Numbered from the stretch's first letter, positions 238-16,344 are shown. The stretch is 64,000 nucleotides of DNA from Clostridia bacterium (GCA_017456985.1 JAFTIH010000027.1:1575-65574); one strand, 5' to 3'. Numbers and translations: made by a program. Notes: a model not told the origin generated them from the sequence alone.

Positions 238-266
238 TTGACAAAAGGAAAAAGGGATGCTATAAT
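238..266 (+). promoter_or_regulatory. Sigma-70-type promoter for T-box leader 1
   Basis: TTGACA (238-243), a 17 nt spacer, then TATAAT (261-266), immediately upstream of the T-box leader. Confidence 0.6.
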
Positions 267-282
267 TTCTACATAATTTTAA

Positions 283-547
283 AGGCTGTGACGAAGACGG
301 ACGCGGCAAAAGCCTCCCCCAGAGAGTCGGTGACGGTGGAAATCCGACGGTGTGCGTGCCGAATGTCTTATCCCTTCCGAGCTGAGAGTCTGAAAGCGTG
401 CGCAAGTAAGGTTCTCCGTATGGCTGCGTAAAAGCACAGAGCTTGTTAGAGCTCATAAAGTGGCGCTACGGCGCAATTTGAGTGGTACCGCGGATAGTTT
501 TTTATGATCCGTCTCAAAGAAATCTTTGGGACGGATCTTTTGTTTTT
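283..547 (+). promoter_or_regulatory. T-box riboswitch leader 1 (tRNA-sensing transcription attenuator)
   Basis: K-turn-like GUGACGAAG at the Stem I base. AGAGAG box plus a GGUGGAAAU distal region. Conserved T-box sequence AATTTGAGTGGTACCGCGG at 475-493. Intrinsic terminator GATCCGTCTC...GGGACGGATC plus a T-run at 506-547, whose 5' arm can instead pair with GCGGAT of the T-box to form an antiterminator. Confidence 0.85.
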
Positions 548-580
548 CATTAAAACACTTTTGAAAGGAGAAAACACAAA

Positions 581-2845
581 ATGAAGGACACGAAAAATTC
601 TTTGATGGAGGTTGCCGCCCGCATTCGCGACCTGCGTGAAATTCTTGGGTTTTCGACTGCACAAATGGCGGAAAAAACGGACGTAGAGGAGGCAAAATAC
701 CTGCTTTATGAAGAGGGAGGCGTGGATCTTCCCTTTACGTTCATTCATAAATGCGCTCTCGCCTTCGGCGTAGAGATGAGCGACTTGCTTGAGGGACGCA
801 GCGCAAAGCTTTCCTCTTACACCGTGACGCGTCGGGGCAAGGGACAGCTGACGGCGAAGGAGGACGGCATCGAGATCTCCCATCTCGCCCCCAACTTCCG
901 CGGCAAGATCGCGGAGCCCTACTACGTGCGCTACGAGTATTCGGAGGCGCTGCAAAACAAGCCGATCCATTTGACCACGCACGGCGGTCAGGAGTTTGAC
1001 CTTGTCATCTCGGGCTCGCTCAAGGTGCAGGTCGGTGAGCACACCGTCGTGCTTGAAGAGGGCGACAGCATCTATTACGAGAGCGGCACCCCCCACGGTA
1101 TGATCGCCGTTGGCGGCAAGGAGTGCATATTCTGCGCCGTCGTGCTTCCCGGAGAAGACGAGGCGGACGAGGAAAAGCTCGTCGAGAGCATCGCCGCATC
1201 GGGCAAGCGGGAGAAGTTGCTGATCAGCAATTTCATCAAATGCACCGAGGATGAGCGCGGCGTTTTGACGGATATCGCCTTTGAGAACGAAGAAAAATAC
1301 AACTTTGCCTTTGATACGGTGGACGCCCTTGCCGACAAGTATCCCGACAAGCTCGCGATGCTTCACCTGGATGCGAACAAGGTCGAGCGCCGCTTCACCT
1401 TCCGTGACCTCAAGCGTGAGAGCGCCCGTGCCGCCAACTACTTTAAATCTCTTGGCATCGGCAAGGGCGACCGCGTGATGCTGGTCTTAAAGCGTCACTA
1501 TCAGTTCTGGTTCGCGATCCTCGGTCTGCACAAGCTGGGCGCCGTAGCGATCCCCGCGACCAATCAGCTCAAAGCCCACGACTTCGCCTACCGCTTCGGC
1601 GCCGCCGACGTCAAGGCGATCCTTTGCACCGCGACGGATAAGACCTCGTGTGAGGTCGATCTTGCGGCGGCAGAGTCCCCCTCGCTCACGACCAAGATCC
1701 TCGTGGGCGGCTCGCGTGAGGGCTGGCACGATTTCGACGAGGAGTATGCACTCTTCAGCACGCATTTCCACCGCACCGAGGACACCGCTTGCGGTTCCGA
1801 CCCGATGCTTATGTTCTTTACCTCGGGCACGACGGGCTACCCCAAGATCGCGGCACACAGCTTTAAGTATGCGCTCGGTCATTTTCCCACGGCGCGCTAT
1901 TGGCACGACGTCCGTCCTACCGACTTGCACTTAACCATCTCCGAAACGGGCTGGGGCAAGGCACTTTGGGGCAAGCTCTACGGTCAGTGGATGGCAGAGG
2001 GCGCGGTCTTTACCTACGACTTCGATCGCTTCCATGCCGCCGATATCCTGCCCCTCTTTGCAAAATACCGCATCACCACCTTCTGCGCACCTCCCACGAT
2101 GTACCGTATGCTCATCAAGGAGGATCTTTCGGGATACGATCTTTCCTCTATCCGCCACGCAACGACGGCGGGCGAGGCACTCAACCCCGAGGTCTTTACG
2201 CAGTTTAAGAAGGCGACGGGACTTTCCATTATGGAGGGCTTCGGACAGACCGAGACCACGCTGACCATCGGTAATATGGCAGGCACGACACCCCGCTCGG
2301 GCTCGATGGGTAAGGCGATGCCGCTTTACGATATCGACGTCGTGGATGCGGACGGCAACAGCGTTGGCATCGGTGAAAACGGCGAGATCGTCGTGCGCAC
2401 CGACAAGAGTGTCCCTTGCGGACTTTTCCTTGGTTATTACAAGGATGAGGAGCGCACGAAGGAGGTCTGGCACGACGGGATGTACCATACGGGCGACGTG
2501 GCGTGGCGTGACGAGGACGGCTACTTCTATTACGTGAGCCGTATCGACGACGTCATCAAGTCCTCGGGCTACCGCATCGGTCCGTTTGAGATCGAAAACG
2601 TGATCATGGAGCTTCCTTACGTTCTTGAATGCGGCGTTTCCGCCGCGCCCGACGAGGTGCGCGGTCAGGTCGTCAAGGCGTCGATCGTCTTGACCAAGGG
2701 AACCGAGCCGAGCGAGGAGCTGAAGAAGGAGATCCAAGAGTACGTCAAAACGCACACCGCTCCCTACAAATATCCCAGAATCGTGGTGTTCCGCGACGAG
2801 CTCCCCAAGACCATCAGCGGCAAGATCATTCATAGCAAGCTGTAA
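581..2845 (+). CDS. Fusion protein: N-terminal XRE-type HTH plus cupin domain, C-terminal AMP-forming short/medium-chain acyl-CoA synthetase
   Basis: SD GAAAGGAG upstream. Residues 1-70 have an HTH_3-like pattern (LREILGFSTAQMAEKT). Residues ~90-190 are cupin-like (GGQEFDLVISG...GDSIYYESGTPHG). The remainder carries adenylate-forming enzyme motifs: FFTSGTTGYPK, GYYKDEE, YHTGD, SSGYRIGPFEIE and a C-terminal PKTISGKI. Confidence 0.85.
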   Translation: MKDTKNSLMEVAARIRDLREILGFSTAQMAEKTDVEEAKYLLYEEGGVDLPFTFIHKCALAFGVEMSDLLEGRSAKLSSYTVTRRGKGQLTAKEDGIEISHLAPNFRGKIAEPYYVRYEYSEALQNKPIHLTTHGGQEFDLVISGSLKVQVGEHTVVLEEGDSIYYESGTPHGMIAVGGKECIFCAVVLPGEDEADEEKLVESIAASGKREKLLISNFIKCTEDERGVLTDIAFENEEKYNFAFDTVDALADKYPDKLAMLHLDANKVERRFTFRDLKRESARAANYFKSLGIGKGDRVMLVLKRHYQFWFAILGLHKLGAVAIPATNQLKAHDFAYRFGAADVKAILCTATDKTSCEVDLAAAESPSLTTKILVGGSREGWHDFDEEYALFSTHFHRTEDTACGSDPMLMFFTSGTTGYPKIAAHSFKYALGHFPTARYWHDVRPTDLHLTISETGWGKALWGKLYGQWMAEGAVFTYDFDRFHAADILPLFAKYRITTFCAPPTMYRMLIKEDLSGYDLSSIRHATTAGEALNPEVFTQFKKATGLSIMEGFGQTETTLTIGNMAGTTPRSGSMGKAMPLYDIDVVDADGNSVGIGENGEIVVRTDKSVPCGLFLGYYKDEERTKEVWHDGMYHTGDVAWRDEDGYFYYVSRIDDVIKSSGYRIGPFEIENVIMELPYVLECGVSAAPDEVRGQVVKASIVLTKGTEPSEELKKEIQEYVKTHTAPYKYPRIVVFRDELPKTISGKIIHSKL

Positions 2846-2894
2846 GAGCTCCTAATATTACTATAATATTAAAGAAGAAAATTTAAAAAAACAC

Positions 2895-2923
2895 TTGACA
2901 AATACCGAAAGACTTGCTATACT
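2895..2923 (+). promoter_or_regulatory. Sigma-70-type promoter for T-box leader 2
   Basis: TTGACA (2895-2900), a 17 nt spacer, then TATACT (2918-2923). Confidence 0.55.
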
Positions 2924-2934
2924 GTTACCATAAA

Positions 2935-3216
2935 AGAATAAAAGGCGATGACGAAGAGGGCTGAGCAAACGGCGCCATCAGAGAACCGACGGTTGGTGCG
3001 AGTCGGCGGTGACGTGCTTTCGCTTGTAGCTTCCGAGCCGAGAGGAAGAAAGCGAAAGCCGTAGAACCTCTCCGTGATTGCTGCGTAAAGGCATAGGACT
3101 TATAGGAGTCCGAGAGTGGCGCCGTCATTGGCGCAATTTGAGTGGTACCGCGGGATATAAGAAATTATAGCTCGTCTCAAAGTATTTTATGTCTTTGAGG
3201 CGGGCTTTTGTTTTAT
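2935..3216 (+). promoter_or_regulatory. T-box riboswitch leader 2
   Basis: GAUGACGAAG K-turn region and an AGAGA box. The T-box sequence AATTTGAGTGGTACCGCGG (3135-3153) is identical to that of leader 1. Terminator AGCTCGTCTCAAAG...CTTTGAGGCGGGCT plus a T-run at 3169-3216. Confidence 0.85.
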
Positions 3217-3246
3217 TCTTTTTCCCCCTCGGAAAACGGAGGAACT

Positions 3247-5547
3247 ATGAACGATCAGATCAAGAGCCTTGATGCGAAGATCAAGGAAATGGCTGCCCGT
3301 ATTCGCGAGCTTCGCGAGATCGAACAGCTCACCGTGCGTGAGATGGCGAGAAAAACGGGTGTCAGCGAAGCCGAGTACACGGCTTGTGAGCGCGGAGAGA
3401 GCGACTTAAACTTCGCGTTTATCTACCGTTGCGCACAGGCGTTCAACGTGGACGTTACGGATATTATTGAGGGTACGAGCCCCCGCCTTGCCGCCTACAC
3501 CGTCACCCGCGCGGGTGAGGGTCAGCGTATCGAGCAGGCGCACGGTATGGTGTATTATAACCTTGCCTCGGCATTCCGTAACCGTATTGCCGAGCCCCTT
3601 CTCGTACACGCCGCATACAGCGCCGAGGCAGAGGCAAAGCCCATTGAAGTCACCACGCACGACGGTCAGGAGTGCGATATCGTGCTCACGGGCTCGCTTT
3701 GCGTCCAGGTGGGCAACCACAAGGTCGTGCTTCACGCGGGCGACAGCATTTATTACGATAGTAGTACCCCTCACGGTATGATTGCGACGGGCGGCAAGGA
3801 CTGCACCTTCTACGCGATGGTGCTGAACCCCTCGGGCGAGCCCATCCCCGAGCTTGAGCCCACCAAGACCGTACAGGAAACGGTGCGCCGCAAGGAAACG
3901 GTCACCGAGGACGGTCCCCGCGTCTATGAGAAGTGGGTGGATACCGAGGAGGACGAGCGCGGCGTGCTTCGCAAGATCTCCTTCAAAAACGAAAACGAGT
4001 TCAACTTCGCCTTTGACGTGGTGGACGCGCTTGCCGCAAGCAAGCCCGATAAGCTCGCGATGCTGCACCTCGACAAAAACAAGACCGAGCGCCGCTTTAC
4101 CTTCCGCGACATCAGCCGCGCGTCCAATCAGTGCGCCAACTACTTTAAGTCGCTGGGCATTGAGCGGGGCGACCGCGTGATGCTGGTCTTGAAGCGTCAT
4201 TATCAGTTCTGGTTCGCCGCGATCGCCTTACATAAGCTGGGCGCGGTGATGATCCCCGCAACCAACCAGCTCAAAGCGAAGGACTTTGCGTACCGCTTTG
4301 AGGCGGCGGGTGTCAATACCATCGTATGCACCGCAGACGACGGCACGGTGGATGAGGCAGAGATCGCTTGTGCAAGCTCTCCCTCCATCAAGAACAAGCT
4401 CATCGTCGGCGGCAAAAAAGAGGGCTGGCGCGATTTCGACGAGGAATATACCCTTTACAGCTCTCATTATACCAAGCCCGAAAACGCCCCCTGCGGCGAG
4501 GATCTGATGTTAATGTTCTTCACCTCGGGCACGACGGGCTACCCCAAGATCGCGGCGCATAACTACAAGTACGCGCTCGGTCACTTCTTAACCGCAAAAT
4601 ACTGGCACGGCGTCAACCCGAGCGGCTTGCACTTGACCATCTCGGATACGGGCTGGGCAAAGGCGCTGTGGGGCAAGCTCTACGGTCAGTGGATGGCTGA
4701 GGGTGCGACCTTCGTGTACGACTTTGATCGCTTCCACGCCGCAGATATTCTGCCCCTGTTCGCCAAGTACCATATCACCACCTTCTGCGCACCTCCCACG
4801 ATGTACCGTATGCTCATCAAGGAGGACCTGACGCGCTACGATATGTCCTCGGTCGAGCGTGCGACCATCGCGGGCGAGGCACTCAACCCCGAGGTCTTCC
4901 GTCAGCTTGAAAAGCTCACGGGTCTTAAAATTATGGAGGGCTTCGGTCAGTCCGAGGGCACGCTTATGATCGGTAATTTGCGCGGTGACTCCTACAAGAT
5001 CGGCGCGATGGGTAAGCCCGTACCCCTTTACGACGTGGATATCGTGGATCCCGACGGTAAGAGCGTTGGCATCGGTGAATCGGGCGAGATCGTCGTCCAC
5101 ACCGAAAACGGCGCCCCTTGCGGTCTGTTTACGGGCTACTACCGCGACGAGGAAAAGACGCGCGAGGCTTGGCACGACGGAATGTATCACACGGGTGACG
5201 TGGCGTGGCGCGATGAGGACGGCTTCTATTGGTACGTCGGACGCATCGACGACGTGATCAAGTCCTCGGGCTACCGCATCGGTCCGTTTGAGATCGAGAA
5301 CGTCATTATGGAGCTTCCTTACGTGCTTGAGTGCGGCGTTTCCGCCGCTCCCGACCCCGTGCGCGGACAGGTCGTGAAGGCGTCCATCGTCTTGACCAAG
5401 GGAACCGAGCCGAGTGACGACCTCAAAAAGGAAATTCAGGACTACGTCAAGCAAAAGACGGCGCCCTACAAGTACCCCCGTATCGTCGTGTTCCGTGAGG
5501 AGCTTCCCAAGACGACGAGCGGCAAGATCATTCGCAATAAGCTGTAA
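3247..5547 (+). CDS. Paralogous fusion protein: XRE HTH plus cupin plus AMP-forming acyl-CoA synthetase
   Basis: Same architecture and motifs as 581-2845 (FFTSGTTGYPK, YHTGD, SSGYRIGPFEIE, PKTTSGKI). I chose ATG 3247 (SD ACGGAGGA) over the track start at 3208, because 3208 lies inside the T-box terminator. Confidence 0.85.
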   Translation: MNDQIKSLDAKIKEMAARIRELREIEQLTVREMARKTGVSEAEYTACERGESDLNFAFIYRCAQAFNVDVTDIIEGTSPRLAAYTVTRAGEGQRIEQAHGMVYYNLASAFRNRIAEPLLVHAAYSAEAEAKPIEVTTHDGQECDIVLTGSLCVQVGNHKVVLHAGDSIYYDSSTPHGMIATGGKDCTFYAMVLNPSGEPIPELEPTKTVQETVRRKETVTEDGPRVYEKWVDTEEDERGVLRKISFKNENEFNFAFDVVDALAASKPDKLAMLHLDKNKTERRFTFRDISRASNQCANYFKSLGIERGDRVMLVLKRHYQFWFAAIALHKLGAVMIPATNQLKAKDFAYRFEAAGVNTIVCTADDGTVDEAEIACASSPSIKNKLIVGGKKEGWRDFDEEYTLYSSHYTKPENAPCGEDLMLMFFTSGTTGYPKIAAHNYKYALGHFLTAKYWHGVNPSGLHLTISDTGWAKALWGKLYGQWMAEGATFVYDFDRFHAADILPLFAKYHITTFCAPPTMYRMLIKEDLTRYDMSSVERATIAGEALNPEVFRQLEKLTGLKIMEGFGQSEGTLMIGNLRGDSYKIGAMGKPVPLYDVDIVDPDGKSVGIGESGEIVVHTENGAPCGLFTGYYRDEEKTREAWHDGMYHTGDVAWRDEDGFYWYVGRIDDVIKSSGYRIGPFEIENVIMELPYVLECGVSAAPDPVRGQVVKASIVLTKGTEPSDDLKKEIQDYVKQKTAPYKYPRIVVFREELPKTTSGKIIRNKL

Positions 5548-5550
5548 GAT

Positions 5551-6207
5551 ATGAAAATGAATCCAAAACGCGTGACCCTCTTTGCAGGGCATTACGGAAG
5601 CGGAAAAACGAATATCGCGGTCAACTACGCCCTAAAAATGGCAGAGGCGGGGCTTCCCGTCACCATTGCGGACCTTGATATCGTCAATCCCTATTTCCGC
5701 ACCAAGGACAGCGCAGAGGACCTCGCCCGTGCGGGCGTCGCGCTGATCTCCTCGGCATACGCCAACACCAACGTGGACCTGCCCGCGTTGCCTGCGGAGC
5801 TGTACGCTCTGACGCAGAACCGCGACCGCTACGCCGTGCTTGACGTGGGCGGCGACGACCGCGGCGCACTGGCACTGGGCAGGTATACCCCCGCCATCCT
5901 CGAGGAAGGGAACTACGAGATGATCTTCGTTGCGAACTTCTATCGTCCTTTGACCCCGACGGCAGAGGATGCTATTGAGGTGATGCGGGAGATCGAGACG
6001 GCAGGAGGGATCCCCTTTACCGCCATCGTACACAATTCAAATCTCGGAGAAGAAACGACCGCACAGGATATTCTCGCCAAGGAGGCGGAGGCAGGGCGCC
6101 TATCGGCGCTCACGGGGCTTCCCATCCTCTTTACGGCGGCACCCGTATCCTTGGCGCCCTCGCTCTCTGAGAGCTTTCCCCTCGTATTACAGAAGAAAAT
6201 AACATAA
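5551..6207 (+). CDS. P-loop NTPase of unknown role (Walker A GHYGSGKT)
   Basis: N-terminal Walker A motif GxxGxGKT. Hydrophobic strand plus Asp (VLDVGGDD), consistent with Walker B. It starts 4 nt after the stop of the preceding synthetase gene. Confidence 0.5.
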   Translation: MKMNPKRVTLFAGHYGSGKTNIAVNYALKMAEAGLPVTIADLDIVNPYFRTKDSAEDLARAGVALISSAYANTNVDLPALPAELYALTQNRDRYAVLDVGGDDRGALALGRYTPAILEEGNYEMIFVANFYRPLTPTAEDAIEVMREIETAGGIPFTAIVHNSNLGEETTAQDILAKEAEAGRLSALTGLPILFTAAPVSLAPSLSESFPLVLQKKIT

Positions 6208-6223
6208 AAGGACGGACAAAAAA

Positions 6224-6430
6224 ATGGCAAAAGTGACATTTGACACCGACCTTTGCAAGGGCTGCGGACTTTGTGTGAACGCCTGCCCCAAGAAGATCCT
6301 CGTGATCGCAAAGGACAAGATCAACAAGAAAGGACATTCTCCTGCCGAGATGACGGACGAGAGCAAGTGCATTGGCTGCGCATTCTGCGCGACGATGTGT
6401 CCCGACTGCGTCATCCGCGTAGAGAAATAA
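6224..6430 (+). CDS. 2x[4Fe-4S] ferredoxin-type delta subunit of 2-oxoacid:ferredoxin oxidoreductase
   Basis: Two CxxCxxCxxxCP motifs (CKGCGLCVNACP and CIGCAFCATMCP) in 68 aa, directly upstream of the alpha subunit. Confidence 0.85.
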   Translation: MAKVTFDTDLCKGCGLCVNACPKKILVIAKDKINKKGHSPAEMTDESKCIGCAFCATMCPDCVIRVEK

Positions 6431-6440
6431 GGAGGCACAT

Positions 6441-7499
6441 ATGGCAAACAAGGTACTTATGAAGGGTAACGAGGCAATTGCCGAGGCGGCGATCCTTGCG
6501 GGATGCCGTCATTACTTCGGTTACCCCATCACCCCTCAAACGGAGATCGCCGCGTATATGGCAAAGCGTATGCCCAAGATCGGCGGCGTGTTCCTTCAGG
6601 CGGAGAGTGAGGTCTCCGCGATCAATATGGTTTACGGCGTTGCAGGCGCAGGCTTCCGCGTGATGACCTCCTCCTCCAGCCCCGGAATTTCCCTCAAGGC
6701 AGAGGGTATCTCCTATATCGCAGGCAGCGACCTTCCCGCGCTCATCGTCAACGTACAGCGCGGCGGCCCCGGTCTTGGCGGCATCCAGCCCTCCCAGTCG
6801 GACTATTTCCAGGCAACGCGCGGTGGCGGTCACGGTGACTACCATCTGCTCGTTTACGCTCCCGCCTCCGTGCAGGAGATGGCTGACCTGACCGTTCTCG
6901 GCTTTGAGAAGGCAGACGAATACCGTATGCCCGCGATGATCCTTGCCGACGGTACGATGGGTCAGATGATGGAGCCCGTGGAGCTTCCCTCGGGCGAAAG
7001 CAAGACCTTTGAAAAGCCCTGGGCGCTCAGCGGCACCAAGTGCGAGCGTCCCCACAACGTCGTCAACTCTCTCTACCTCAAGCCCGAAAAGCTCGAGGAG
7101 GTCAACTTTGCACGCTACGAGCGTTACCGCAAGATCGAAGAGACCGAAACGATGTACGAGTCCTACTTGATGGAGGACGCAGAATATTGCGTGGTTGCCT
7201 TCGGTATTGCCGCACGCGTGGCAAAGAACGCCGTCATCGCGGCACGTGCCAAGGGCATCCGCGTGGGTATGATCCGTCCGATCACCCTGTGGCCCTTCCC
7301 CAAGGCACCCCTTGCCGAGGCGGCAAAGACGGTCAAGGCGTTCCTCTCGGTCGAGCTCTCGATGGGTCAGATGATCGAGGACGTCGAGCTTGCGACCCGC
7401 TCGCAGAAGCCCGTTCTGCTTTGCAACCGCGCAGGCGGTATGATCCCCACGCCCGAAGAGGTGCTTGGTGCGATCGAGAATATGACGAAAGGAGTATAA
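6441..7499 (+). CDS. 2-oxoacid:ferredoxin oxidoreductase alpha subunit (VorB/KorA-like)
   Basis: N-terminus MKGNEAIAEAAILAGCRHYFGYPITPQTEI is typical of the OFOR alpha family. Operon position is between the delta and beta subunits. Confidence 0.85.
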   Translation: MANKVLMKGNEAIAEAAILAGCRHYFGYPITPQTEIAAYMAKRMPKIGGVFLQAESEVSAINMVYGVAGAGFRVMTSSSSPGISLKAEGISYIAGSDLPALIVNVQRGGPGLGGIQPSQSDYFQATRGGGHGDYHLLVYAPASVQEMADLTVLGFEKADEYRMPAMILADGTMGQMMEPVELPSGESKTFEKPWALSGTKCERPHNVVNSLYLKPEKLEEVNFARYERYRKIEETETMYESYLMEDAEYCVVAFGIAARVAKNAVIAARAKGIRVGMIRPITLWPFPKAPLAEAAKTVKAFLSVELSMGQMIEDVELATRSQKPVLLCNRAGGMIPTPEEVLGAIENMTKGV

Positions 7500-7502
7500 G
7501 CG

Positions 7503-8261
7503 ATGAGCGTTGTATTTGAAAAACCCAAATCTTTGGCAAACGTCCCCTTCCACTACTGCCCCGGATGCACGCACGGTATCATTCACCGTCTGGTTGCCGA
7601 GGCGATCGACGAGCTGGGCATTGAAGGCCGCGCCATCGGCGTTGCTCCCGTCGGCTGTGCCGTTATGGCATACGACTATTTTACCTGTGATATGATCGAG
7701 GCGGCACACGGCAGAGCCCCCGCCGTTGCGACGGGCATCAAGCGCGCGCGCCCCGAGAATATCGTCTTCACCTATCAGGGTGACGGCGACCTTGCCTCCA
7801 TCGGTATGGCGGAAACCGTACACGCGGCGGCAAGAAACGAGAACATCACCATCATCTTCGTCAACAACGCGATCTACGGTATGACGGGCGGTCAGATGGC
7901 ACCCACCTCGCTCCCCGGTCAGGTCACCCAGACCTCGCCCTACGGACGCGACGTCAAGCTGACGGGCTATCCCGTCAAGGTTGCCGAGCTGCTTTCCGCA
8001 CTCGACGGTCCTACCTATATTGAGCGCGTTGCCGTGAACAACGTCAAGAACGTGAAGGCGGCAAAGAAGGCGATCCTCAAGGCGTTCAAGAACCAGGTCG
8101 AGGGCCGTGGCTTCTCGCTCATCGAGGTCGTTTCCTCCTGCCCCACCAACTGGGGTATGACGCCCGAAAAGGCGCTCGAATGGGTTGACGAGAAGATGAT
8201 CCCCTATTATCCTCTCGGCGTATATCGCGATAAGACGGCAGAAACGGAGGAGAAGGCATGA
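7503..8261 (+). CDS. 2-oxoacid:ferredoxin oxidoreductase beta subunit (thiamine diphosphate-binding)
   Basis: Cys motif FHYCPGCTHG and TPP-binding GDGD...NNAIYGMTGGQ. Confidence 0.85.
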   Translation: MSVVFEKPKSLANVPFHYCPGCTHGIIHRLVAEAIDELGIEGRAIGVAPVGCAVMAYDYFTCDMIEAAHGRAPAVATGIKRARPENIVFTYQGDGDLASIGMAETVHAAARNENITIIFVNNAIYGMTGGQMAPTSLPGQVTQTSPYGRDVKLTGYPVKVAELLSALDGPTYIERVAVNNVKNVKAAKKAILKAFKNQVEGRGFSLIEVVSSCPTNWGMTPEKALEWVDEKMIPYYPLGVYRDKTAETEEKA

Positions 8262-8797
8262 AGACGACCAACCTTTTGATTGCAGGCTTCGGCGGACAGG
8301 GCGTCCTGTTCGCAGGTAAGTTCCTCGCTTACAAGGGACTCCTTGAGGGCAAGCAGCTCAGCTGGCTCCCCTCCTACGGTCCCGAAATGCGCGGCGGTAC
8401 GGCGAACTGCTCCGTCATCATCAGCGACGAGCCCGTCGGCTCTCCCATCGTGTCCAACCCCGACGTTCTGATGGTAATGAACCTGCCCTCGCTTGACAAA
8501 TACGAGGATGCGACCGTCGCAGGCGGCAAGATCTTCGTGGACTCCACGCTCATTGAGCGCAAGGTAGAGCGCACGGACGTGGATGCGTACTACATTCCCG
8601 CGACCCGTCTTGCCAAGGAAGCAGGCTTCCCCACGCTCGCCAATATGATCATGGTGGGCAAGCTCATCAAGGAAACGGGTATGGTGTCCTTTGATGGCAT
8701 CCGCGAGGCGCTCTCCAAGGTCGTTTCCGCAAAGCACGCCGATCTGCTTGAGATCAACCTCAAGGCGATCGAAACGGGCTACAACTACGCAGAATAA
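8258..8797 (+). CDS. 2-oxoacid:ferredoxin oxidoreductase gamma subunit
   Basis: GFGGQGVLFAGKFLA N-terminal motif of the OFOR gamma family. 4-nt overlap with the beta subunit gene. Confidence 0.8.
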   Translation: MKTTNLLIAGFGGQGVLFAGKFLAYKGLLEGKQLSWLPSYGPEMRGGTANCSVIISDEPVGSPIVSNPDVLMVMNLPSLDKYEDATVAGGKIFVDSTLIERKVERTDVDAYYIPATRLAKEAGFPTLANMIMVGKLIKETGMVSFDGIREALSKVVSAKHADLLEINLKAIETGYNYAE

Positions 8798-8861
8798 CCG
8801 AATCACTTTTCACTATGGATTTCCCCGCCTCGGTGCGGGATAAAGAAAGAAGGAAAAACAG

Positions 8862-9929
8862 ATGTTAAACATCAGAATTGAAAAGACCACCGCCCCCAAG
8901 GCAAAGCCTGCAAAGGGCGAGAAGCTCGGCTTCGGTCATATCTTTACCGACCATATGTTCGTGATGAACTATACCGAGGGCAAGGGCTGGTACGATCCCC
9001 GCATCGTGCCTTATCAGAACCTTTCGCTCTCTCCCGCCTCGATGGTGTTCCACTACGGTCAGGAGATGTTCGAGGGGCTGAAAGCGTACAAGGGTGAGGA
9101 CGACAAGGTCTACCTGTTCCGCCCCGATATGAACGCAAAGCGCGCGAACCAGTCTAACGACCGTCTTTGCATCCCCAACATCCCCGAGGAGGATTTCGTG
9201 GAGGCGGTCCGCGCTCTCGTTGAGGTAGAGCAGGATTGGATCCCCACCGATCCCGGCACCTCGCTTTATATTCGTCCCTTCGTGATCGCAACGGACGATT
9301 TCCTGGGTGTTGCGCCCTCTAAAAATTATCTGTTCCTCGTCATCGTTTCTCCCTCGGGTGCGTACTACGCAAGCGGTCTTGCCCCTGTTGGCATCTGGAT
9401 CGAGGACGAGTACGTCCGTGCCGTCAAGGGCGGTATGGGCTTTGCTAAGACGGGCGGTAACTACGCCGCGTCCCTTATCGCACAGGTCAAGGCACACGAC
9501 GATGGTTATTCGCAGGTCTTGTGGTTGGACGGTGTGGAAAGAAAGTACATTGAAGAGGTTGGCGCGATGAACATCTTCTTCAAGATCGCGGGCAAGGTCG
9601 TAACGCCTATGCTCAACGGCAGTATTCTTCCCGGTGTCACCCGTAACTCCGTGCTGACGCTTTGCCGCGCTTGGGGATACGAGGTCGAGGAGCGCCGCAT
9701 CTCGGTGGACGAGCTGGTTGCCGCCGCCAAGGACGGTACGCTCGAGGAGGTCTTCGGTACGGGTACGGCGGCAGTCGTTTCGCCTGTCGGTAAGCTCCGT
9801 TATATGAATGACGTGATGCAGATCGGCGGCGGTGAGATCGGCGAGCTGACGCAGAAGCTGTACGACGAGATCACGGGCATTCAGTGGGGCAAGCGCCCCG
9901 ATCCCTTCGGCTGGAGAGTCGAGGTCTAA
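8862..9929 (+). CDS. ilvE: Branched-chain amino acid aminotransferase
   Basis: 355 aa with class IV aminotransferase motifs: FTDHMF, HYGQEMFEGLKAY, GGNYAASL, EEVGAMNIFF, ILPGVTR. Confidence 0.9.
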   Translation: MLNIRIEKTTAPKAKPAKGEKLGFGHIFTDHMFVMNYTEGKGWYDPRIVPYQNLSLSPASMVFHYGQEMFEGLKAYKGEDDKVYLFRPDMNAKRANQSNDRLCIPNIPEEDFVEAVRALVEVEQDWIPTDPGTSLYIRPFVIATDDFLGVAPSKNYLFLVIVSPSGAYYASGLAPVGIWIEDEYVRAVKGGMGFAKTGGNYAASLIAQVKAHDDGYSQVLWLDGVERKYIEEVGAMNIFFKIAGKVVTPMLNGSILPGVTRNSVLTLCRAWGYEVEERRISVDELVAAAKDGTLEEVFGTGTAAVVSPVGKLRYMNDVMQIGGGEIGELTQKLYDEITGIQWGKRPDPFGWRVEV

Positions 9930-9939
9930 TTGAAAACGA

Positions 9940-9978
9940 CAAGGCTGTTTGAAATCCAAACAGCCTTGCTTTCCTCTT
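9940..9978 (+). terminator. Intrinsic terminator after ilvE
   Basis: 12-bp stem CAAGGCTGTTTG/CAAACAGCCTTG followed by a T-rich tail. Confidence 0.6.
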
Positions 9979-10048: not shown

Positions 10049-11332
10049 ATGAAAAACTTTGATATTGAAACGCGTTGCGTGCAGGGTGGCTACACCCCCG
10101 GCAACGGTGAGCCTCGTCAGATCCCCATCATCCAAAGCACCACCTTCAAGTACGATACGGGCGAGGATATGGGCAAGCTCTTTGACCTGGAAGCGTCGGG
10201 CTATTTCTACTCCCGCTTGCAGAACCCCACCTGCGACACCGTCGCGGCAAAGATCTGTGAGATGGAGGGCGGTAGCGCGGCGATGCTGACCTCCTCGGGT
10301 CAGGCGGCAAACTTCTACGCCGTTTTTAATCTTGCTAACTGCGGCGACCACGTGGTGGCGTCCTCTGCCATCTACGGCGGTACCTTTAACCTCTTCTCGG
10401 TCACGATGAAGAAGATGGGCATTGACTTCACCTTCGTCAAGCCCAACGCGACTGCCGACGAGCTTCGTGCGGCGTTCCGCCCCAACACCAAGGCGCTCTT
10501 TGGCGAGACCATCGCCAACCCCGCGCTCAACGTGCTGGACATTGAAACCTTCGCGACGGTGGCACACGAGATGGGCGTGCCGCTCATCATTGATAACACC
10601 TTTGCGACCCCCGTGCATTGCCGTCCCATCGAGTGGGGCGCTGATATCGTGACCCACTCCACCACCAAGTATATGGACGGTCACGGCGGATGCGTGGGCG
10701 GTGCGATCGTGGATGCGGGCAAGTTTGACTGGATGGCACACGCCGAGCGTTTCCCCGGTCTTTGCACGCCCGATGACAGCTACCACGGTGTCACCTACGC
10801 CGAGCGCTTCGGCAAGGAGGGTGCCTTCATCACGAAGGCGACCGCGCAGATCATGCGTGACCTCGGCTCGGTTTGCGCGCCGATGACGGCGTATATGCTC
10901 AACCTTGGGCTGGAGAGCCTGCACGTGCGTATGCAGCGCCATTATGAGAACGGTCTTGCCGTTGCCGAGTATCTTGCAAAGCACGAGAAGATCGCTTGGG
11001 TGAAATTCCCCTCGCTTCCCGACGACGAGGATTACGCGCTTGCTAAAAAGTATATGCCAAACGGCACCTGCGGCGTCGTCAGCTTTGGCGTCAAGGGCGG
11101 CAGAGAAGCGGCAGAGAAGTTTATGACGGGACTTCGTCTCGCGGCAATCGAAACCCACGTTGCCGACGCCCGCTCTTGCTGCCTGCACCCCGCATCCACC
11201 ACGCATCGCCAGATGAGCGACGCGGAGCTGCTTGCGGCTGGCGTATCGCCCGACCTCGTCCGCTTCTCCTGCGGTATTGAGAGCGCGCGTGACCTGATCG
11301 CGGATATCGAGCAGGCGCTCGCAAACGTATAA
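10049..11332 (+). CDS. metY: O-acetylhomoserine sulfhydrylase (aminocarboxypropyltransferase), PLP-dependent
   Basis: 427 aa with Cys/Met-metabolism PLP family motifs: FYSRLQNPT, SSGQAA, and HSTTKYMDGHG with the PLP lysine. Confidence 0.9.
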   Translation: MKNFDIETRCVQGGYTPGNGEPRQIPIIQSTTFKYDTGEDMGKLFDLEASGYFYSRLQNPTCDTVAAKICEMEGGSAAMLTSSGQAANFYAVFNLANCGDHVVASSAIYGGTFNLFSVTMKKMGIDFTFVKPNATADELRAAFRPNTKALFGETIANPALNVLDIETFATVAHEMGVPLIIDNTFATPVHCRPIEWGADIVTHSTTKYMDGHGGCVGGAIVDAGKFDWMAHAERFPGLCTPDDSYHGVTYAERFGKEGAFITKATAQIMRDLGSVCAPMTAYMLNLGLESLHVRMQRHYENGLAVAEYLAKHEKIAWVKFPSLPDDEDYALAKKYMPNGTCGVVSFGVKGGREAAEKFMTGLRLAAIETHVADARSCCLHPASTTHRQMSDAELLAAGVSPDLVRFSCGIESARDLIADIEQALANV

Positions 11333-11351: not shown

Positions 11352-11794
11352 TATTGTCGCTTTGCGGCAGTGGTATTCTGCTATAGGCAGAGTGGTATTC
11401 ACCTACGGTGAGTGATATTGTCCGCGCGGCGGACAGTGGTATTCTGCTATAGGCAGAGTGATATTCACCTACGGTGAGTGGTATTGTCCGCGCGGCGGAC
11501 AGTGGTATTCTGCCACGGGCAGAGTGGTATTCACCTACGGTGAGTGGTATTGTCCGCGCGGCGGACAGCGGTATTCTGCCACGGGCAGAGTGGTATTCAC
11601 CTACGGTGAGTGGTATTGTCCGCGCGGCGGACAGTGGTATTCTGCCACGGGCAGAGTGGTATTCACCTACGGTGCGTGATATTGTCCGCGTGGCGGACAG
11701 TGGTATTCTGCCACGGGCAGAGTGGTATTCACCTACGGTGAGTGGTATTGTCCGCGCGGCGGACAGTGGTATTCCGCTTCCGCGGAGTGATAGG
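11352..11794 (+). repeat. Hierarchical tandem repeat: ~6.7 copies of a 66-bp unit, each made of three sub-units (22+20+24 bp) of AGTGGTATT plus a GC hairpin
   Basis: AGTGGTATT or one-mismatch variants start at 11369, 11391, 11411, 11435, 11457, 11477, 11501, 11523, 11543, 11567, 11589, 11609, 11633, 11655, 11675, 11699, 11721, 11741, 11765 and 11786. The intervening hairpins are CTGCCACGGGCAG, CACCTACGGTG and GTCCGCGCGGCGGAC. Confidence 0.95.
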
Positions 11795-11837
11795 CGTGCC
11801 CCGCGCGCAAAAAAAATCAACGAAAGGAGCGACCGAT

Positions 11838-12755
11838 ATGCCCATTCGCATACCGAACGAGCTTCCCGCAACCAAAGTTTTAGCGGATGAAAACATCTTC
11901 GTGATGACCGAGACCCGCGCACAGACGCAGGACATCCGCCCCCTTCGCATCGCGCTTCTGAACCTGATGCCCACCAAGATCGACACGGAAACCCAGCTTT
12001 CCCGTCTTCTCGGTAACACCCCGCTTCAGGTGGAGCTGACCTTGCTGCATACCAAAACGCACGAGTCGAAAAACACCTCCAAGGAGCACCTGCTCGCCTT
12101 CTATAAGACATTCGACGACGTCAAGAGCGAGCGCTTCGACGGTCTGATCATCACGGGTGCGCCCGTTGAGCAGATGCCGTTTGAAGAAGTCGAATACTGG
12201 GACGAGCTTTGTGAGATCATGGCGTGGAGCAAAAAGAACGTCCACAGCACCTTCCACATTTGCTGGGGTGCGCAGGCGGCGCTCTATTACCACTACGGTA
12301 TTCCCAAGTATGCGCTTCCCGAAAAGATGTTCGGCGTGTTCCCGCATACCGTTTGCGACCGCCGCTCTATGCTCTTCCGTGGCTTCGACGACACCTTCTT
12401 CGTGCCGCACTCCCGCCACACCGAGGTGCGCGAGGAGGACATCCGTGCGTGCGAGGCACTGACCGTGCTTTCCACCTCTCCCGCAGCGGGCGTTTACGCC
12501 GTCAGCGCGATGGAGGGCAGACAGATCTTTATTACGGGACATTCGGAGTACGATCCCGATACCTTAGCAAAGGAATTCTTCCGCGACCTTTCGCAGGGGA
12601 AAGCCATTCGCGTGCCCGAAAACTATTTCCCGAGCGACAACCCCGAAAACCCGCCGCTCGTGCTCTGGCGCGCTCATGCTAACTTGATCTACTCCAACTG
12701 GCTCAACTATTTCGTGTACCAGACGACGCCGTACGATCTGGATACGATGGAATAA
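11838..12755 (+). CDS. metA: Homoserine O-acyltransferase (MetA family; probably O-acetyl-forming given the adjacent metY)
   Basis: Canonical MetA N-terminus [23 protein letters not shown] with SD AAAGGAG 8 nt upstream. The track start at 11742 lies inside the tandem repeat and is rejected. Confidence 0.9.
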
Positions 12756-12820
12756 TGTTAATTTTTTGTTAAAATTCCAAAATACGGAACCCTCAAAACG
12801 GGGGCTCCATCCCCCAAAAA

Positions 12821-12868
12821 GCAGACGAAACCGTTGTTAAAGGCACGGGCTTTTCGTCTGCTTTTTTT
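12821..12868 (+). terminator. Intrinsic terminator after metA
   Basis: Stem GCAGACGAAA...TTTCGTCTGC followed by TTTTTTT. Confidence 0.75.
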
Positions 12869-13083
12869 CTTTTTTCGGCGTGTTGACGGAGCACGGAACT
12901 TTCGGGGAAAACCCTTCCTTTTCCTCGAAAGTCGCAGAAAAAACGAGTAAAACGGGGCGAAACGGGGGTAAAAATGAAAAAACCGTTAACGGCAAAATGT
13001 AAACCATTCTTTACAAATAGAGGAAAAATTTGGGTTATTTCGCGGCAGAATGTAGGCAAAACATACAAGAAACGCGCGCGAAA

Positions 13084-16200: not shown

Positions 16201-16344
16201 GCGGAGCTGAACAATATGTGGGTCGAGGCAACCGACCAGACCACCGAGGCGGCAAAGCTCTCCCGCCTTGGCACGATGAGCGGCCCCATCTTAAACGACA
16301 ACCTTTACGTCTTTATCGAGAAGAGCTTGTACGAAAAGCGATAA
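13300..16344 (+). CDS. Secreted or membrane-anchored von Willebrand factor A (vWA/MIDAS) protein with a beta-rich ectodomain, a C-terminal TM helix and a ~170 aa tail
   Basis: Signal peptide MKKTTKILSVLLAVLLLVLTVPVTTATA. MIDAS DNSGS (VLFDNSGSM) with downstream TPTGKT and LVLTDG. Long T/S/V/G-rich region. Hydrophobic helix IFQYVIRILIYLYIIQLIIVAVTF (nt ~15761-15832), then a basic tail. Confidence 0.8.
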   Translation: MKKTTKILSVLLAVLLLVLTVPVTTATASNGTDPSYTKNKVVSVLFDNSGSMQGEKWNTARYALQTLMTTLGKNDTLRVVPMNKTSGAVNKDGEYVEVDLAAEDRNKEIERIFLTVGATFLSAATPTGKTPSETIGVALQELIDMGMKTTAETGADEISKNDYFLLVLTDGAFNPKGVPGEEIKDPAVLFDGYFKDDLSKYASFQSIYIGFSDEALDLSAYSASSANFSAYKAKDSAAIGGVMKQVANRITGRYTLENFTVNGSTVTIPLDGVGFALRSVTVMATQTNARFSSAKYGTETLTPSQNVSFQPPAGMAGKGGFTAILSRSAGTFSGGTITLTLDEAIEKSSVSILLEPALALSPIVECEKDGSWIEVDAAYINSNLTKKNKIRLSYIITEQGTGNTVDLDAIFGTTVARVSYNTKTYDVGEAFSLATGNHEIGLSVSVMDGAYSLYASFPCVVLDNPTSFRIEDGGTVTSGNNYTTTFKVFDDGNLITSLSALNAYSPSVTATREDGSTIPVSVIKRDDGTFAATLALDGEAYGTFKLRATVRSAEGNPRTLDVAVGYYPSGLVITPDKTELSKTLFGIIDNTEGISFRLTAPDAATGNDIEIPFGLSQITYTVTAGTVDLTAAASVSGNVLTIVPTAELLGALAGSVGEHALKVKVVFNKGSAVETAEGSAKLALTDTVYEIVPLEKTPAPINRFSLSKNEGSIYFRVLRDGVSLSEEELAALLADGSLTVNANPAGGLLDFINAIGPLASEQTVETVDGAPAIRARICSCQGGFLPFILTAMFVSGDRVEMTASYRGVEAMKAAPLANASIFQYVIRILIYLYIIQLIIVAVTFKDQTKVKRVPQGALVRLSLSAKEGRHKAVETVRIIKVISLKEHLMLGRLIPFVGLLPRFRQKDVPTTVGTLLYTETGLRMRSTRACVEAEIRTRDGNNPIVPKVRQKFANIKPKGGITLRYEPAELNNMWVEATDQTTEAAKLSRLGTMSGPILNDNLYVFIEKSLYEKR

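Follow-up and report, generated by a model that had tools for sequence, protein, structure and literature searches.

A candidate tRNA-gated operon for salvage of branched short-chain acids into isoleucine and valine in rumen and hindgut Clostridia

An array of genes in a 64,000-nucleotide stretch of Clostridia bacterium DNA (the window) is probably a salvage operon under tRNA control, in which branched short-chain acids, plentiful in rumen and gut fluid, are turned into isoleucine and valine. An anabolic direction, from acid to amino acid, had been proposed in a sequence-only reading of this DNA. The Ile and Val specifiers of two T-box leaders and the relatives of two acyl-CoA synthetases support that direction, as does in part the 2-oxoacid:ferredoxin oxidoreductase (OFOR), with enzyme substrates that we infer. 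Reductive carboxylation of branched acids to branched-chain amino acids (BCAAs) is classical rumen physiology, and the need of M. ruminantium for 2-methylbutyrate is one observation that it has been invoked to account for (PMC2812497). No description of this module was found in the literature that was searched; if our reading is true, the operon provides a gene-level handle on a 60-year-old observation in rumen nutrition.

In the proposed scheme, uncharged tRNA-Ile would cause T-box 1 to let transcription from promoter 1 enter the synthetase 1 gene, and synthetase 1 would convert 2-methylbutyrate to 2-methylbutyryl-CoA, with ATP cleaved to AMP and PPi. Uncharged tRNA-Val would open the remainder of the operon through T-box 2, and synthetase 2 would form isobutyryl-CoA from isobutyrate. 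The OFOR, running in the reductive direction, would combine either acyl-CoA with CO2 and reduced ferredoxin to yield 2-oxo-3-methylvalerate or 2-oxoisovalerate, which IlvE would transaminate to Ile and Val, respectively. A P-loop NTPase would be co-expressed with the OFOR and IlvE. Leu has no acid-activating arm in this scheme, and would be made from 2-oxoisovalerate via a leuA-like gene under a Leu T-box in related genomes.

Operon layout, T-box leaders and conservation

The whole array lies on the plus strand of the window with all genes co-directional (Table 1). The gene order, shared direction and short gaps given in the sequence-only reading agree with the coordinates and family matches: adjacent genes from synthetase 2 through the OFOR gamma subunit overlap by 4 nt at the closest and are at most 16 nt apart, and 64 nt precede ilvE. 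Synthetase 2 starts at the ATG at 3247 and not at an upstream TTG at 3208.

Table 1. Features of the operon, with coordinates counted from the first nucleotide of the window
Feature	Coordinates	Strand	Description
Promoter 1	238-266	+	TTGACA, 17-nt spacer, TG-extended -10 TATAAT; 12/12 consensus matches
T-box leader 1, Ile-specific	279-519	+	RF00230; specifier AUC at 370-372; UGGU acceptor-pairing bulge in antiterminator
T-box 1 intrinsic terminator	506-547	+	14-bp stem and U tract; pattern scan and fold
Synthetase 1, 754 aa	581-2845	+	HTH, cupin, AMP-forming acyl-CoA synthetase; proposed 2-methylbutyrate--CoA ligase
Promoter 2	2895-2923	+	TTGACA, 17-nt spacer, TATACT, TG-extended; 11/12 consensus matches
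T-box leader 2, Val-specific	2939-3182	+	RF00230; specifier GUA at 3026-3028, purine next
T-box 2 intrinsic terminator	3169-3222	+	14-bp stem, 10-nt loop, U tract; fold
Synthetase 2, 766 aa	3247-5547	+	HTH, cupin, AMP-forming acyl-CoA synthetase; proposed isobutyrate--CoA ligase
P-loop (SIMIBI-class) NTPase	5551-6207	+	Conserved; named only "hypothetical protein" in sources
OFOR delta subunit, 68 aa	6224-6430	+	2x[4Fe-4S] ferredoxin-like; Fer4
OFOR alpha subunit	6441-7499	+	POR_N and PFOR_II; "VorB" in NCBI naming
OFOR beta subunit	7503-8261	+	TPP-binding; TPP_enzyme_C
OFOR gamma subunit	8258-8797	+	POR
IlvE, branched-chain amino acid aminotransferase	8862-9929	+	Class IV, type II
Bidirectional hairpin terminator closing the operon	9940-9968	+	Pattern scan

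Both leaders matched the RF00230 covariance model over its full length (model positions 1-219, covering Stem I, the Stem II/IIA-B region, Stem III and the antiterminator), T-box 1 with 75.8 bits (E = 6.8e-16) and T-box 2 with 82.8 bits (E = 1.1e-17), and a search of the whole window recovered the same two (E = 1.3e-14 and 2.1e-16, respectively). These scores lie below the Rfam gathering score of 93 bits, which is an annotation threshold and not a structural feature; with default settings, Rfam reported no T-box in the window, and the leaders are visible only with an E-value threshold. Orthologous Ile and Val leaders scored 80-89 bits, compared with 110 bits for the Leu T-box in one related locus (L006), and leaders of this kind will be missed by pipelines that rely on the gathering score. 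Despite the low scores, the E-values and the antiterminator and terminator folds bear out the two T-boxes that had been proposed.

Each T-box is preceded by a near-consensus promoter, and both promoters have the same architecture and position in orthologous loci. The antiterminators of both leaders adopt the canonical fold with a 7-nt bulge, UGGUACC; UGGU is present in the bulge of all 121 leaders compared, which fits discriminator A73 of the tRNA. Folding of the terminators gave -22.9 kcal/mol (z = -6.6) for T-box 1 and -21.2 kcal/mol (z = -7.3) for T-box 2, the latter having been overlooked by the pattern scan because its loop exceeds 8 nt. The 5' arm of terminator 1 overlaps the 3' arm of its antiterminator, and in both leaders the two structures share a strand and are therefore mutually exclusive. 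No tRNA genes were found within the 64-kb window.

The AUC specifier is invariant in the 46 orthologous leaders ahead of synthetase 1. Variation at the Val specifier is synonymous only, with GUA in 65, GUC in 5 and GUG in 1 of 71 orthologous leaders. The specifier lies in the Specifier Loop, immediately 5' of the lower Stem I helix. This flanking helix is 100% paired, with compensatory changes at 4 of 4 pairs, and controls shifted by one to three columns lower the pairing to 24-50%; this covariation fixes the codon register. C instead of the usual purine follows the specifier in roughly half of the Ile leaders, that of the window among them. Both codons specify branched-chain amino acids, in line with the sequence-only reading, and the leaders are predicted to answer uncharged tRNA-Ile (leader 1) and uncharged tRNA-Val (leader 2).

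Ile control covers synthetase 1 only and Val control covers everything else, a division that had been overlooked. The earlier notion of one dedicated synthetase per T-box holds for the synthetases themselves; the genes for the P-loop protein, the OFOR and IlvE all follow the Val T-box only. In many relatives the stretch between synthetase 1 and promoter 2 is too short to hold a terminator.

The wiring is awkward in one respect, in that Ile synthesis, too, requires the OFOR and IlvE. With both behind the Val T-box, a cell starved of Ile only would depend on leaky read-through or on further copies of these genes.

The comparison set comprised 80 related loci from MAGs of rumen and hindgut Clostridia. 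All eight genes fell within the fetched DNA in 35 of the 80. Synthetase 1 was directly upstream in 47 of the 65 loci with enough upstream sequence, and the P-loop gene directly followed synthetase 2 in 49 of the 69 with enough downstream sequence. The arrangement is not due to chance, and the module is kept across dozens of species-level MAGs from both habitats; two loci (L025 and L027) keep the genes and have no T-box. No Leu/isovalerate arm is present, although the sequence-only reading listed isovalerate among the acids. Relatives serve Leu through a Leu T-box and leuA-like gene, found downstream in 13 related loci.

Enzymes of the operon and competing functional assignments

Both synthetases match PF00501 (E = 1e-60 to 1e-63) and PF13193 and contain the core motifs TSGTTGYPK, YHTGD and SGKI. 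The best solved relative of each is Macs from M. acetivorans (3ETC; E = 1.6e-186 for synthetase 1 and 9.4e-189 for synthetase 2), with alignments of 625-632 bits over about 515-540 residues. Among NCBIfam models MbcS scored best for both (430 and 435 bits), and as neither reached the equivalog cut-off of 850 bits they are not MbcS equivalogs. With 3ETC and MbcS as closest relatives, the synthetases are not of the aromatic-acid or otherwise unrelated types whose preferences, in the sequence-only reading, would have counted against the proposal.

The pocket motif is GWGK in synthetase 1, as in 3ETC, and GWAK in synthetase 2. Across orthologues the two paralogue groups differ at only 2 catalytic-core positions, one of them directly after the pocket Trp, where the Ile-linked enzyme shares Gly with 3ETC and the Val-linked enzyme has Ala; synthetase 1 retains the Macs Gly at both. 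This Gly/Ala difference runs in the direction expected. Macs favours 2-methylbutyrate, the only acid that completes its thioester step efficiently, and adenylates propionate too (PMC10455477), and S. aureus MbcS activates 2-methylbutyrate and isobutyrate, and isovalerate hardly (PMC10026030). We propose that synthetase 1 acts on 2-methylbutyrate and synthetase 2 on isobutyrate.

The demonstrated role of MbcS, the best-scoring curated family, is lipid priming (PMC10026030). The synthetases might by analogy salvage 2-methylbutyrate and isobutyrate as FabH starters, with IlvE and the OFOR making the same acyl-CoAs from BCAAs. We consider such a role unlikely, given that the T-boxes in published surveys govern genes for aminoacyl-tRNA ligases and for the synthesis and transport of amino acids, with a specifier that fits gene function wherever it has been verified (PMC2494555). 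To switch on IlvE and the OFOR for breakdown of Val while tRNA-Val is uncharged would also be self-defeating. Branched acids are known to enter both lipids and amino acids in rumen bacteria, and the acyl-CoA pools may have a dual use.

The OFOR alpha subunit scored 536 bits with NF005507 (VorB subfamily, cut-off 399), a model whose name rests on annotation and not on assay of a close relative. Its nearest solved structures are 1YD7, a 2-keto-acid OFOR from P. furiosus, followed by the 2-oxoglutarate enzymes 8YS5 and 6N2N. Scores of 79 bits with the Pyrococcus VorA model PRK08366, 314 with a generic model and 231 with an Oor-type alpha model were all below the respective cut-offs. The branched-chain class assumed earlier for this enzyme is supported in part, by the VorB subfamily match and not by the nearest solved relatives, which are generic 2-keto-acid and 2-oxoglutarate enzymes. 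Genetic context (linkage to IlvE and the synthetases, and the Val T-box) suggests branched 2-oxoacids and acyl-CoAs as its substrates. IlvE is well matched by NF009897 (504 bits, cut-off 307) and TIGR01123 (415 bits, cut-off 250).

An OFOR nearer in sequence to short-2-oxoacid enzymes than to archaeal VOR would also suit a propionate start for Ile, in which synthetase 1 would form propionyl-CoA for carboxylation to 2-oxobutyrate by the OFOR, and the ordinary IlvBNCD enzymes encoded elsewhere would finish Ile. Clostridia and methanogens are reported to build Ile from propionate through reductive carboxylation. The adenylation of propionate by Macs agrees with this route, but its inefficient thioester step with acids other than 2-methylbutyrate (PMC10455477) and the retention of both Macs Gly residues in synthetase 1 argue against it. 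Four further enzymes would be needed, none of them in the operon, and we regard the route as quite improbable.

AMP-forming chemistry favours acid activation over ATP recovery: AMP-forming synthetases conserve no energy toward the acid, and fermenters use ADP-forming synthetases or phosphotransacylase/kinase. Fermentation of BCAAs by IlvE and an oxidative OFOR, with acyl-CoAs released as branched acids, is very improbable for this operon, as breakdown induced by uncharged tRNA-Ile or tRNA-Val would make no regulatory sense and the paralogous synthetases each have their own amino-acid-specific switch, even though C. sporogenes needs porA, which encodes a PFOR-superfamily enzyme, to form each of the three branched acids from BCAAs (bioRxiv 10.1101/401489).

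The P-loop NTPase gave weak CbiA/ParA matches only, and no NCBIfam family was matched. A confident predicted model most resembles SRP GTPases and ATPase-type HypB in fold (TM 0.5-0.6). In 56 of 57 loci the gene immediately precedes that of the delta subunit, a genetic tie to the OFOR that the sequence-only reading had overlooked; as a guess, the protein might help in OFOR maturation or assembly.

The N-terminal HTH-cupin module of the synthetases

Both synthetases begin with a PuuR-like HTH and cupin module of about 215 aa, overlooked in the sequence-only reading. HTH_19/HTH_3 domains are followed by Cupin_2. The PuuR model aligns over residues 15-187 of the module with only 26.6 bits, and stand-alone HTH-cupin relatives of 183-190 aa align to it end to end with 33-48% identity. 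The Ile-linked and Val-linked paralogues are told apart by 14 positions, of which 12 fall in the module, several of them in the cupin. Identity between the paralogues is 53% in the module vs. 76% in the catalytic core, and the module is well conserved within each group.

The HTH is conserved and strongly acidic (mean net charge about -6), and no conserved palindrome was found near the promoters of orthologous loci beyond an A/T-rich UP-like tract, which together make DNA binding by the module doubtful. The concentration of separating residues in the module, its greater divergence between paralogues and its conservation within each group tentatively suggest a paralogue-specific sensor, which may possibly add a second layer of control above the T-box. 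Each cupin would bind its own ligand, either Ile vs. Val or 2-methylbutyrate vs. isobutyrate, and the ligand would toggle enzyme activity or, with lower likelihood, affect the promoter. In logical terms, the operon would then require both scarcity of the amino acid and availability of the precursor acid, or it would be subject to end-product feedback inhibition. If true, these enzymes would be acyl-CoA synthetases of a new, allosterically regulated or trigger-type class, widespread in gut Clostridia.

Comparison with known systems

The leaders share with classical Firmicutes T-box operons (ilv-leu, trp and aminoacyl-tRNA synthetase genes) tRNA attenuation, a K-turn Stem I, specifier loop and distal platform, a UGGN bulge, competition between antiterminator and terminator, and a specifier for the product amino acid. 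They differ in controlling acid activation and reductive carboxylation rather than the acetolactate route, in placing two T-boxes of unlike specificity in series within one array, in scoring below the Rfam gathering threshold, and in the C after the Ile specifier.

Like archaeal VOR and bacterial KOR/OOR-type enzymes, the OFOR has a delta-alpha-beta-gamma set of subunits, a TPP-binding beta subunit, a 2x[4Fe-4S] delta subunit and reversible chemistry; archaeal VOR is said to be reversible in the title of a 1996 report by Heider et al. The window alpha subunit is far from the characterised Pyrococcus VOR and closer to 1YD7 and the 2-oxoglutarate enzymes. A dedicated P-loop NTPase gene also stands ahead of the OFOR genes, something that to our knowledge has not been described for VOR or KOR operons.

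The synthetases resemble Macs and MbcS in their AMP-forming fold, in having Gly in place of the acetate-pocket Trp (GFGQ motif) and in the shared GW[G/A]K motif, and the known substrates of those enzymes, 2-methylbutyrate and isobutyrate, match the Ile and Val switches of the window. MbcS differs in its known physiological role, which is lipid priming and not amino acid synthesis. Unlike either, the window synthetases are paired paralogues under separate T-boxes, and carry the extra N-terminal HTH-cupin module with a linker of about 35 aa. An adenylate-forming enzyme with an N-terminal HTH recalls BirA, whereas the fusion to an acyl-CoA synthetase sets the module apart from PuuR-type regulators.

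Operon layout and T-box leaders

ORF listing, Pfam/NCBIfam scans and an Rfam scan with an E-value threshold recovered all elements of the gene order described in the sequence-only reading: two T-box leaders, each followed by an acyl-CoA synthetase, then a P-loop NTPase, a four-subunit 2-oxoacid:ferredoxin oxidoreductase (OFOR) and the branched-chain aminotransferase IlvE, all on the forward strand. Position 238, where that reading begins, coincides with the -35 box of promoter 1, as follows from the span of that promoter.

Features of the operon and its surroundings (window positions)
Feature	Position	Strand	Remarks
Promoter 1	238-266	+	sigma-70 consensus 12/12, TG-extended -10 box; precedes T-box 1
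T-box leader 1	279-519	+	RF00230 full-length match, 75.8 bits, E 6.8e-16 (E-value threshold)
Synthetase 1	581-2845	+	754 aa
Promoter 2	2895-2923	+	sigma-70 consensus 11/12, TG-extended -10 box; precedes T-box 2
T-box leader 2	2939-3182	+	RF00230 full-length match, 82.8 bits, E 1.1e-17 (E-value threshold)
Synthetase 2	3247-5547	+	766 aa; ATG at 3247, in frame with TTG at 3208 of the ORF listing
P-loop protein	5551-6207	+	218 aa
OFOR delta	6224-6430	+	68 aa, 2x[4Fe-4S]
OFOR alpha	6441-7499	+	POR_N plus PFOR_II
OFOR beta	7503-8261	+	TPP-binding
OFOR gamma	8258-8797	+	
IlvE	8862-9929	+	class IV aminotransferase
Hairpin terminator	9940-9968		closes gene array
metY-like gene	10049-11332		beyond operon terminator
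Gut-1 RNA (RF01706), four tandem matches	11390-11469, 11476-11555, 11608-11687, 11720-11798	+	between metY-like and metA-like genes; 38.7-44 bits, E 2e-5 to 5e-4; gathering score 50
metA-like gene	11742-12755		beyond operon terminator
Protein without Pfam match	13300-16344	+	1014 aa; precedes the two giant proteins
Giant protein	16374-20216	+	1280 aa; N-terminal tubulin-like domain
Giant protein	20288-24052	+	1254 aa; N-terminal tubulin-like domain
S10-Clostridia ribosomal protein leader (RF03136)	41237-41310	+	48 bits, above gathering score; upstream of ribosomal protein cluster

Scanned at the default gathering thresholds of Rfam, the window yields no T-box; the same two leaders were recovered when the E-value scan was repeated across its whole length. 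The gathering score of the T-box family is 93 bits, and the Ile and Val leaders of the module in the window and in the related loci L001, L006 and L036 all fall below it, at 76-89 bits, so that pipelines using gathering thresholds leave them unannotated. This may be why the link between T-boxes and the module escaped notice.

Both leaders have the canonical antiterminator fold with a seven-base UGGUACC bulge and a strong competing terminator with a U tract (-22.9 kcal/mol, z = -6.6 for leader 1; -21.2 kcal/mol, z = -7.3 for leader 2). The acceptor-pairing tetranucleotide is UGGU in 121 of 121 leaders, which implies that the discriminator base is A, the base found there in bacterial tRNA-Ile and tRNA-Val. 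A tRNA search found no tRNA genes within the 64-kb window.

T-box Stem I is not a minimum free energy (MFE) structure, and MFE folding of single Stem I sequences was uninformative, with z-scores above 0; the specifiers were therefore approached comparatively. The parse required lower helix pairing next to the K-turn, replacing a first, too loose regular expression that gave nonsense output, and placed the specifier in the three bases 5′ of the lower Stem I helix, with one spacer base and CUUC:GAAG pairing beside the K-turn. All 46 parsed leaders of synthetase 1 orthologues carry AUC (Ile), and the 71 leaders of synthetase 2 orthologues carry the Val codons GUA (65), GUC (5) or GUG (1); the window has ATC at 370-372 and GTA at 3026-3028. 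An invariant Ile codon in one set and variation solely among synonymous Val codons in the other is the behaviour of a specifier.

Aligning 58 leaders of synthetase 2 shows 100% pairing of the lower helix, a percentage made partly circular by the pre-selection of paired helices in the parse. The compensatory changes and slide controls are free of this circularity: compensatory changes occur in 4/4 pairs of the lower helix (variants GAAG/CUUC, GGAG/CUCC, GAAA/UUUC, GGGG/CCCC and others) and in 6/6 pairs of the distal helix, and displacing the 3′ partner by 1-3 columns lowers pairing from 96.7% to 24-50%. RNAalifold on the 58 Stem I sequences recovered the distal helix alone, and the other helices were supplied by hand for the covariation count. 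The predicted specifier register is thus supported by covariation, and we assign Ile to leader 1 and Val to leader 2 with high confidence, both being branched-chain codons as a branched-chain amino acid module would have. The base 3′ of a T-box specifier is normally a conserved purine; it is always a purine in the Val leaders (G 61, A 10), and in the 46 Ile leaders it is C in 21, A in 23 and G in 2, with C at window position 373.

Beyond the operon terminator, the tandem array of Gut-1 RNA, an orphan motif, might be a regulatory element upstream of metA. One further copy occurs in L001 (13487-13557, 46.8 bits). The tubulin-like domains of the two adjoining giant proteins match PF13809 (Tubulin_2) with E 1e-33 to 1e-36. 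The RF03136 leader is consistent with the Clostridia origin of the window.

Synthetase cores and the fused HTH-cupin module

Both synthetases contain an AMP-binding core (PF00501 plus PF13193). Their best NCBIfam model is the Staphylococcus aureus methylbutyryl-CoA synthetase MbcS (430-435 bits, far from the equivalog cut-off of 850), and by far their top solved structure is 3ETC (E 9.4e-189 and 1.6e-186), which spans the entire catalytic part. 3ETC is the medium-chain acyl-CoA synthetase of Methanosarcina acetivorans (Macs); 2-methylbutyrate is its preferred substrate and the one for which a clean thioester step is reported (PMC10455477). Purified MbcS is selective for 2-methylbutyrate and isobutyrate, with butyrate and isovalerate poor substrates and acetate unused (PMC10026030). 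The nearest characterised relatives are thus enzymes for short branched-chain acids, as first supposed, and their substrate range comprises exactly the acid pair corresponding to Ile and Val.

An alignment of 50 synthetase 1 and 80 synthetase 2 orthologues contains 310 columns that are at least 90% conserved and identical between the groups, and only 14 that are at least 90% conserved within each group yet differ between them. The catalytic core holds two of these 14, Gly459/Ala471 (motif GW[G/A]K) and Gly474/Ala486. The former directly follows the pocket Trp and corresponds to Val in the acetyl-CoA synthetase motif 'GWVTG'. In the alignment 3ETC has Gly at both positions, so the Ile-linked enzyme matches the 2-methylbutyrate enzyme; the bulkier Ala of the Val-linked enzyme is suggestive of a smaller acid, for which it would be expected. 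We regard 2-methylbutyrate as the probable substrate of synthetase 1 and isobutyrate as that of synthetase 2.

Overlooked in the sequence-only reading, both synthetases start with an XRE-type HTH and a cupin domain, which together span about 215 aa and lead into a linker of low conservation. This module aligns end-to-end but weakly with the PuuR regulator model. Its best matches among 1.8 billion representative proteins are fusions of ~760 aa and their fragments, followed by many stand-alone HTH-cupin proteins of 183-190 aa with 33-48% identity over the entire module, which indicates fusion of an entire small regulator to the enzyme. This family of fusions has at least 8000 relatives, named solely 'AMP-binding protein' or 'cupin domain-containing protein'.

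The other 12 of the 14 discriminating positions lie in this module, several within the cupin (E94/A98, I99/Y103, Y114/L118). Identity between the two window paralogues is 53% in the module vs 76% in the core, and conservation inside each paralogue group is about equal (0.73-0.81 vs 0.81-0.84). Such a pattern fits a domain with a separate recognition target in each of the two pathways. The HTH is acidic (mean net charge about -6), with a Glu-rich recognition helix, and no conserved operator was found near either promoter in related loci, where consensus promoters and an A/T-rich UP-like tract alone were seen; both points disfavour the role of a classical repressor. A TAATATTA-CTA-TAATATTA repeat at 2852-2870 was considered as an operator and dropped, as it is not conserved in other loci.

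Conservation of the module and its oxidoreductase

A search with one genome per species found relatives of synthetase 2 in at least 593 stretches. The best 80 of these loci (67-74% identity) all come from uncultured rumen or hindgut Clostridia, labelled Acutalibacteraceae, Oscillospiraceae, Christensenellales, Ruminococcus sp. and similar, with cattle, yak, goat, sheep, deer, horse and human as hosts. Window proteins and the T-box core were mapped onto these 80 loci with about 6 kb of flank each, and contig ends cut many of them. The complete set of eight genes occurs in 35 of the 80. Synthetase 1 lies directly 5′ of synthetase 2 in 47 of the 65 loci with enough upstream DNA, and the P-loop gene directly 3′ of it in 49 of the 69 with enough downstream DNA. 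The P-loop gene adjoins OFOR delta upstream in 56/57 loci, even where ilvE has moved ahead of it.

A lone T-box with synthetase 2, away from any OFOR, is found in 11/80 loci; in L001, the Val T-box and synthetase are flanked by a 5S rRNA gene and a lysine riboswitch (4306-4422, 9161-9335). Among sampled loci, Rfam confirmed three T-boxes in L006 and also T-boxes in L001 and L036. At E <= 1e-4 it found none in L025 and L027, where the genes are kept, so that control must differ there. These two loci, one of them labelled Lachnospiraceae, retain both fused synthetases, ilvE, the P-loop gene and the OFOR as far as the fetched DNA reaches, and have an extra distant AMP-binding gene upstream (25-26% identity).

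Thirteen related loci (L006, L009, L016, L021, L028, L032, L042, L045, L048, L050, L054, L057 and L062) have a third T-box 3′ of ilvE, with a Leu specifier (CUC or CUG), controlling a leuA-like gene; 2-isopropylmalate synthase models match this gene best, on truncated ORFs. The L006 copy (12741-12991) scores 109.9 bits and, in contrast to the Ile and Val leaders, exceeds the Rfam gathering score. The window lacks the Leu T-box and has metY and metA after ilvE instead.

IlvE scores above two curated equivalog cut-offs. The placement of the OFOR among branched-chain enzymes held in part: its alpha subunit exceeds the cut-off of the NCBIfam 'VorB' subfamily (536 vs 399 bits), a subfamily that is annotation-based, but it is distant from the Pyrococcus 2-ketoisovalerate oxidoreductase (VOR) alpha model (79 bits), and its nearest solved relatives are 1YD7 (Pyrococcus furiosus 2-keto-acid OFOR alpha) and then the 2-oxoglutarate enzymes 8YS5 and 6N2N. 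The case for branched-chain substrates comes mainly from context, namely the conserved clustering of the OFOR with IlvE and the two synthetases behind a Val T-box. In archaea, PFOR-superfamily enzymes for branched 2-oxoacids are established. Genetic evidence in Clostridium sporogenes likewise places a PFOR-superfamily enzyme on branched 2-oxoacids, in the oxidative direction (bioRxiv 10.1101/401489).

The P-loop protein has the Walker A motif GHYGSGKT. It matched no curated NCBIfam family, the sole name in the sources being 'hypothetical protein', and a sequence search of the PDB gave matches at the Walker-A level only. Its AlphaFold model is confident (pLDDT 85), and fold search returned a generic SIMIBI-class likeness (SRP GTPases and the ATPase-type Ni-chaperone HypB) with TM 0.5-0.6 only. 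Given its tight linkage to the OFOR, our guess is a role in OFOR maturation or assembly.

Proposed wiring and relation to known systems

The specifiers, the kinship with 3ETC and MbcS and the conserved linkage support the salvage of branched acids into amino acids put forward in the sequence-only reading, and we consider it likely that the module as a whole serves Ile and Val salvage. Uncharged tRNA-Ile would open T-box 1 and induce synthetase 1, converting 2-methylbutyrate to 2-methylbutyryl-CoA; uncharged tRNA-Val would open T-box 2 and induce synthetase 2, the P-loop protein, the OFOR and IlvE, with synthetase 2 converting isobutyrate to isobutyryl-CoA. The OFOR would reductively carboxylate both acyl-CoAs with reduced ferredoxin, and IlvE would catalyse the last step to Ile and Val. 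The absence of an isovalerate arm, with only two activating enzymes, would be explained if Leu were made from the module's 2-oxoisovalerate, a reading drawn from the Leu T-box and leuA-like gene of the 13 related loci. The OFOR and IlvE are gated by tRNA-Val alone, though the proposed route needs both for Ile too. Promoter 2 begins a few bases from the synthetase 1 stop codon in many relatives, so transcripts from promoter 1 would run into T-box 2 and still be subject to it.

Genes under T-box induction serve to raise the pool of charged tRNA. In a T-box survey, the specifier matched the function of the downstream gene in every leader for which that function was experimentally verified (PMC2494555). 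An anabolic direction follows from the match between specifiers and gene function and from the AMP-forming synthetases, which drive acid activation; a catabolic reading, branched-chain amino acid breakdown, conflicts with both induction by uncharged tRNA and AMP-forming synthetases and was rejected.

Since the 1960s many fibre-degrading anaerobes have been known to need or use isobutyrate, 2-methylbutyrate and isovalerate, and feeding branched acids to cattle is still studied as a means to raise fibre digestion. The genes usually cited for branched-acid use are generic. The Methanobrevibacter ruminantium genome paper inferred Ile formation by reductive carboxylation of 2-methylbutyrate and named no genes (PMC2812497). 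Our literature search found no paper tying T-boxes to acyl-CoA synthetases or OFORs and no description of a dedicated, regulated branched-acid module, with earlier mention possible in T-box surveys or curated regulon databases (e.g. Vitreschak et al. 2008, RegPrecise); acyl-CoA synthetase and OFOR targets are absent from the T-box and RNA-regulon surveys consulted, including PMC2494555.

The module provides a marker gene set, scorable in MAGs and metatranscriptomes, for predicting branched-acid salvage among uncultured Clostridia, and its two T-box specifiers give each synthetase a predicted substrate. It also exposes an annotation blind spot, namely T-boxes below the Rfam gathering score, and brings to light two very common, uncharacterised protein types, the synthetase with its fused HTH-cupin module and the P-loop NTPase that accompanies the OFOR. 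Rumen physiologists will find little surprise in the outcome, but a long-standing question now becomes open to direct tests. The physiology is classical, and T-boxes, Macs/MbcS, VOR and IlvE are each known already; apparently new are an amino acid operon under T-box control whose proposed route is the salvage of acids by reductive carboxylation, and two components not characterised before, a regulator-enzyme fusion and an NTPase linked to the OFOR.
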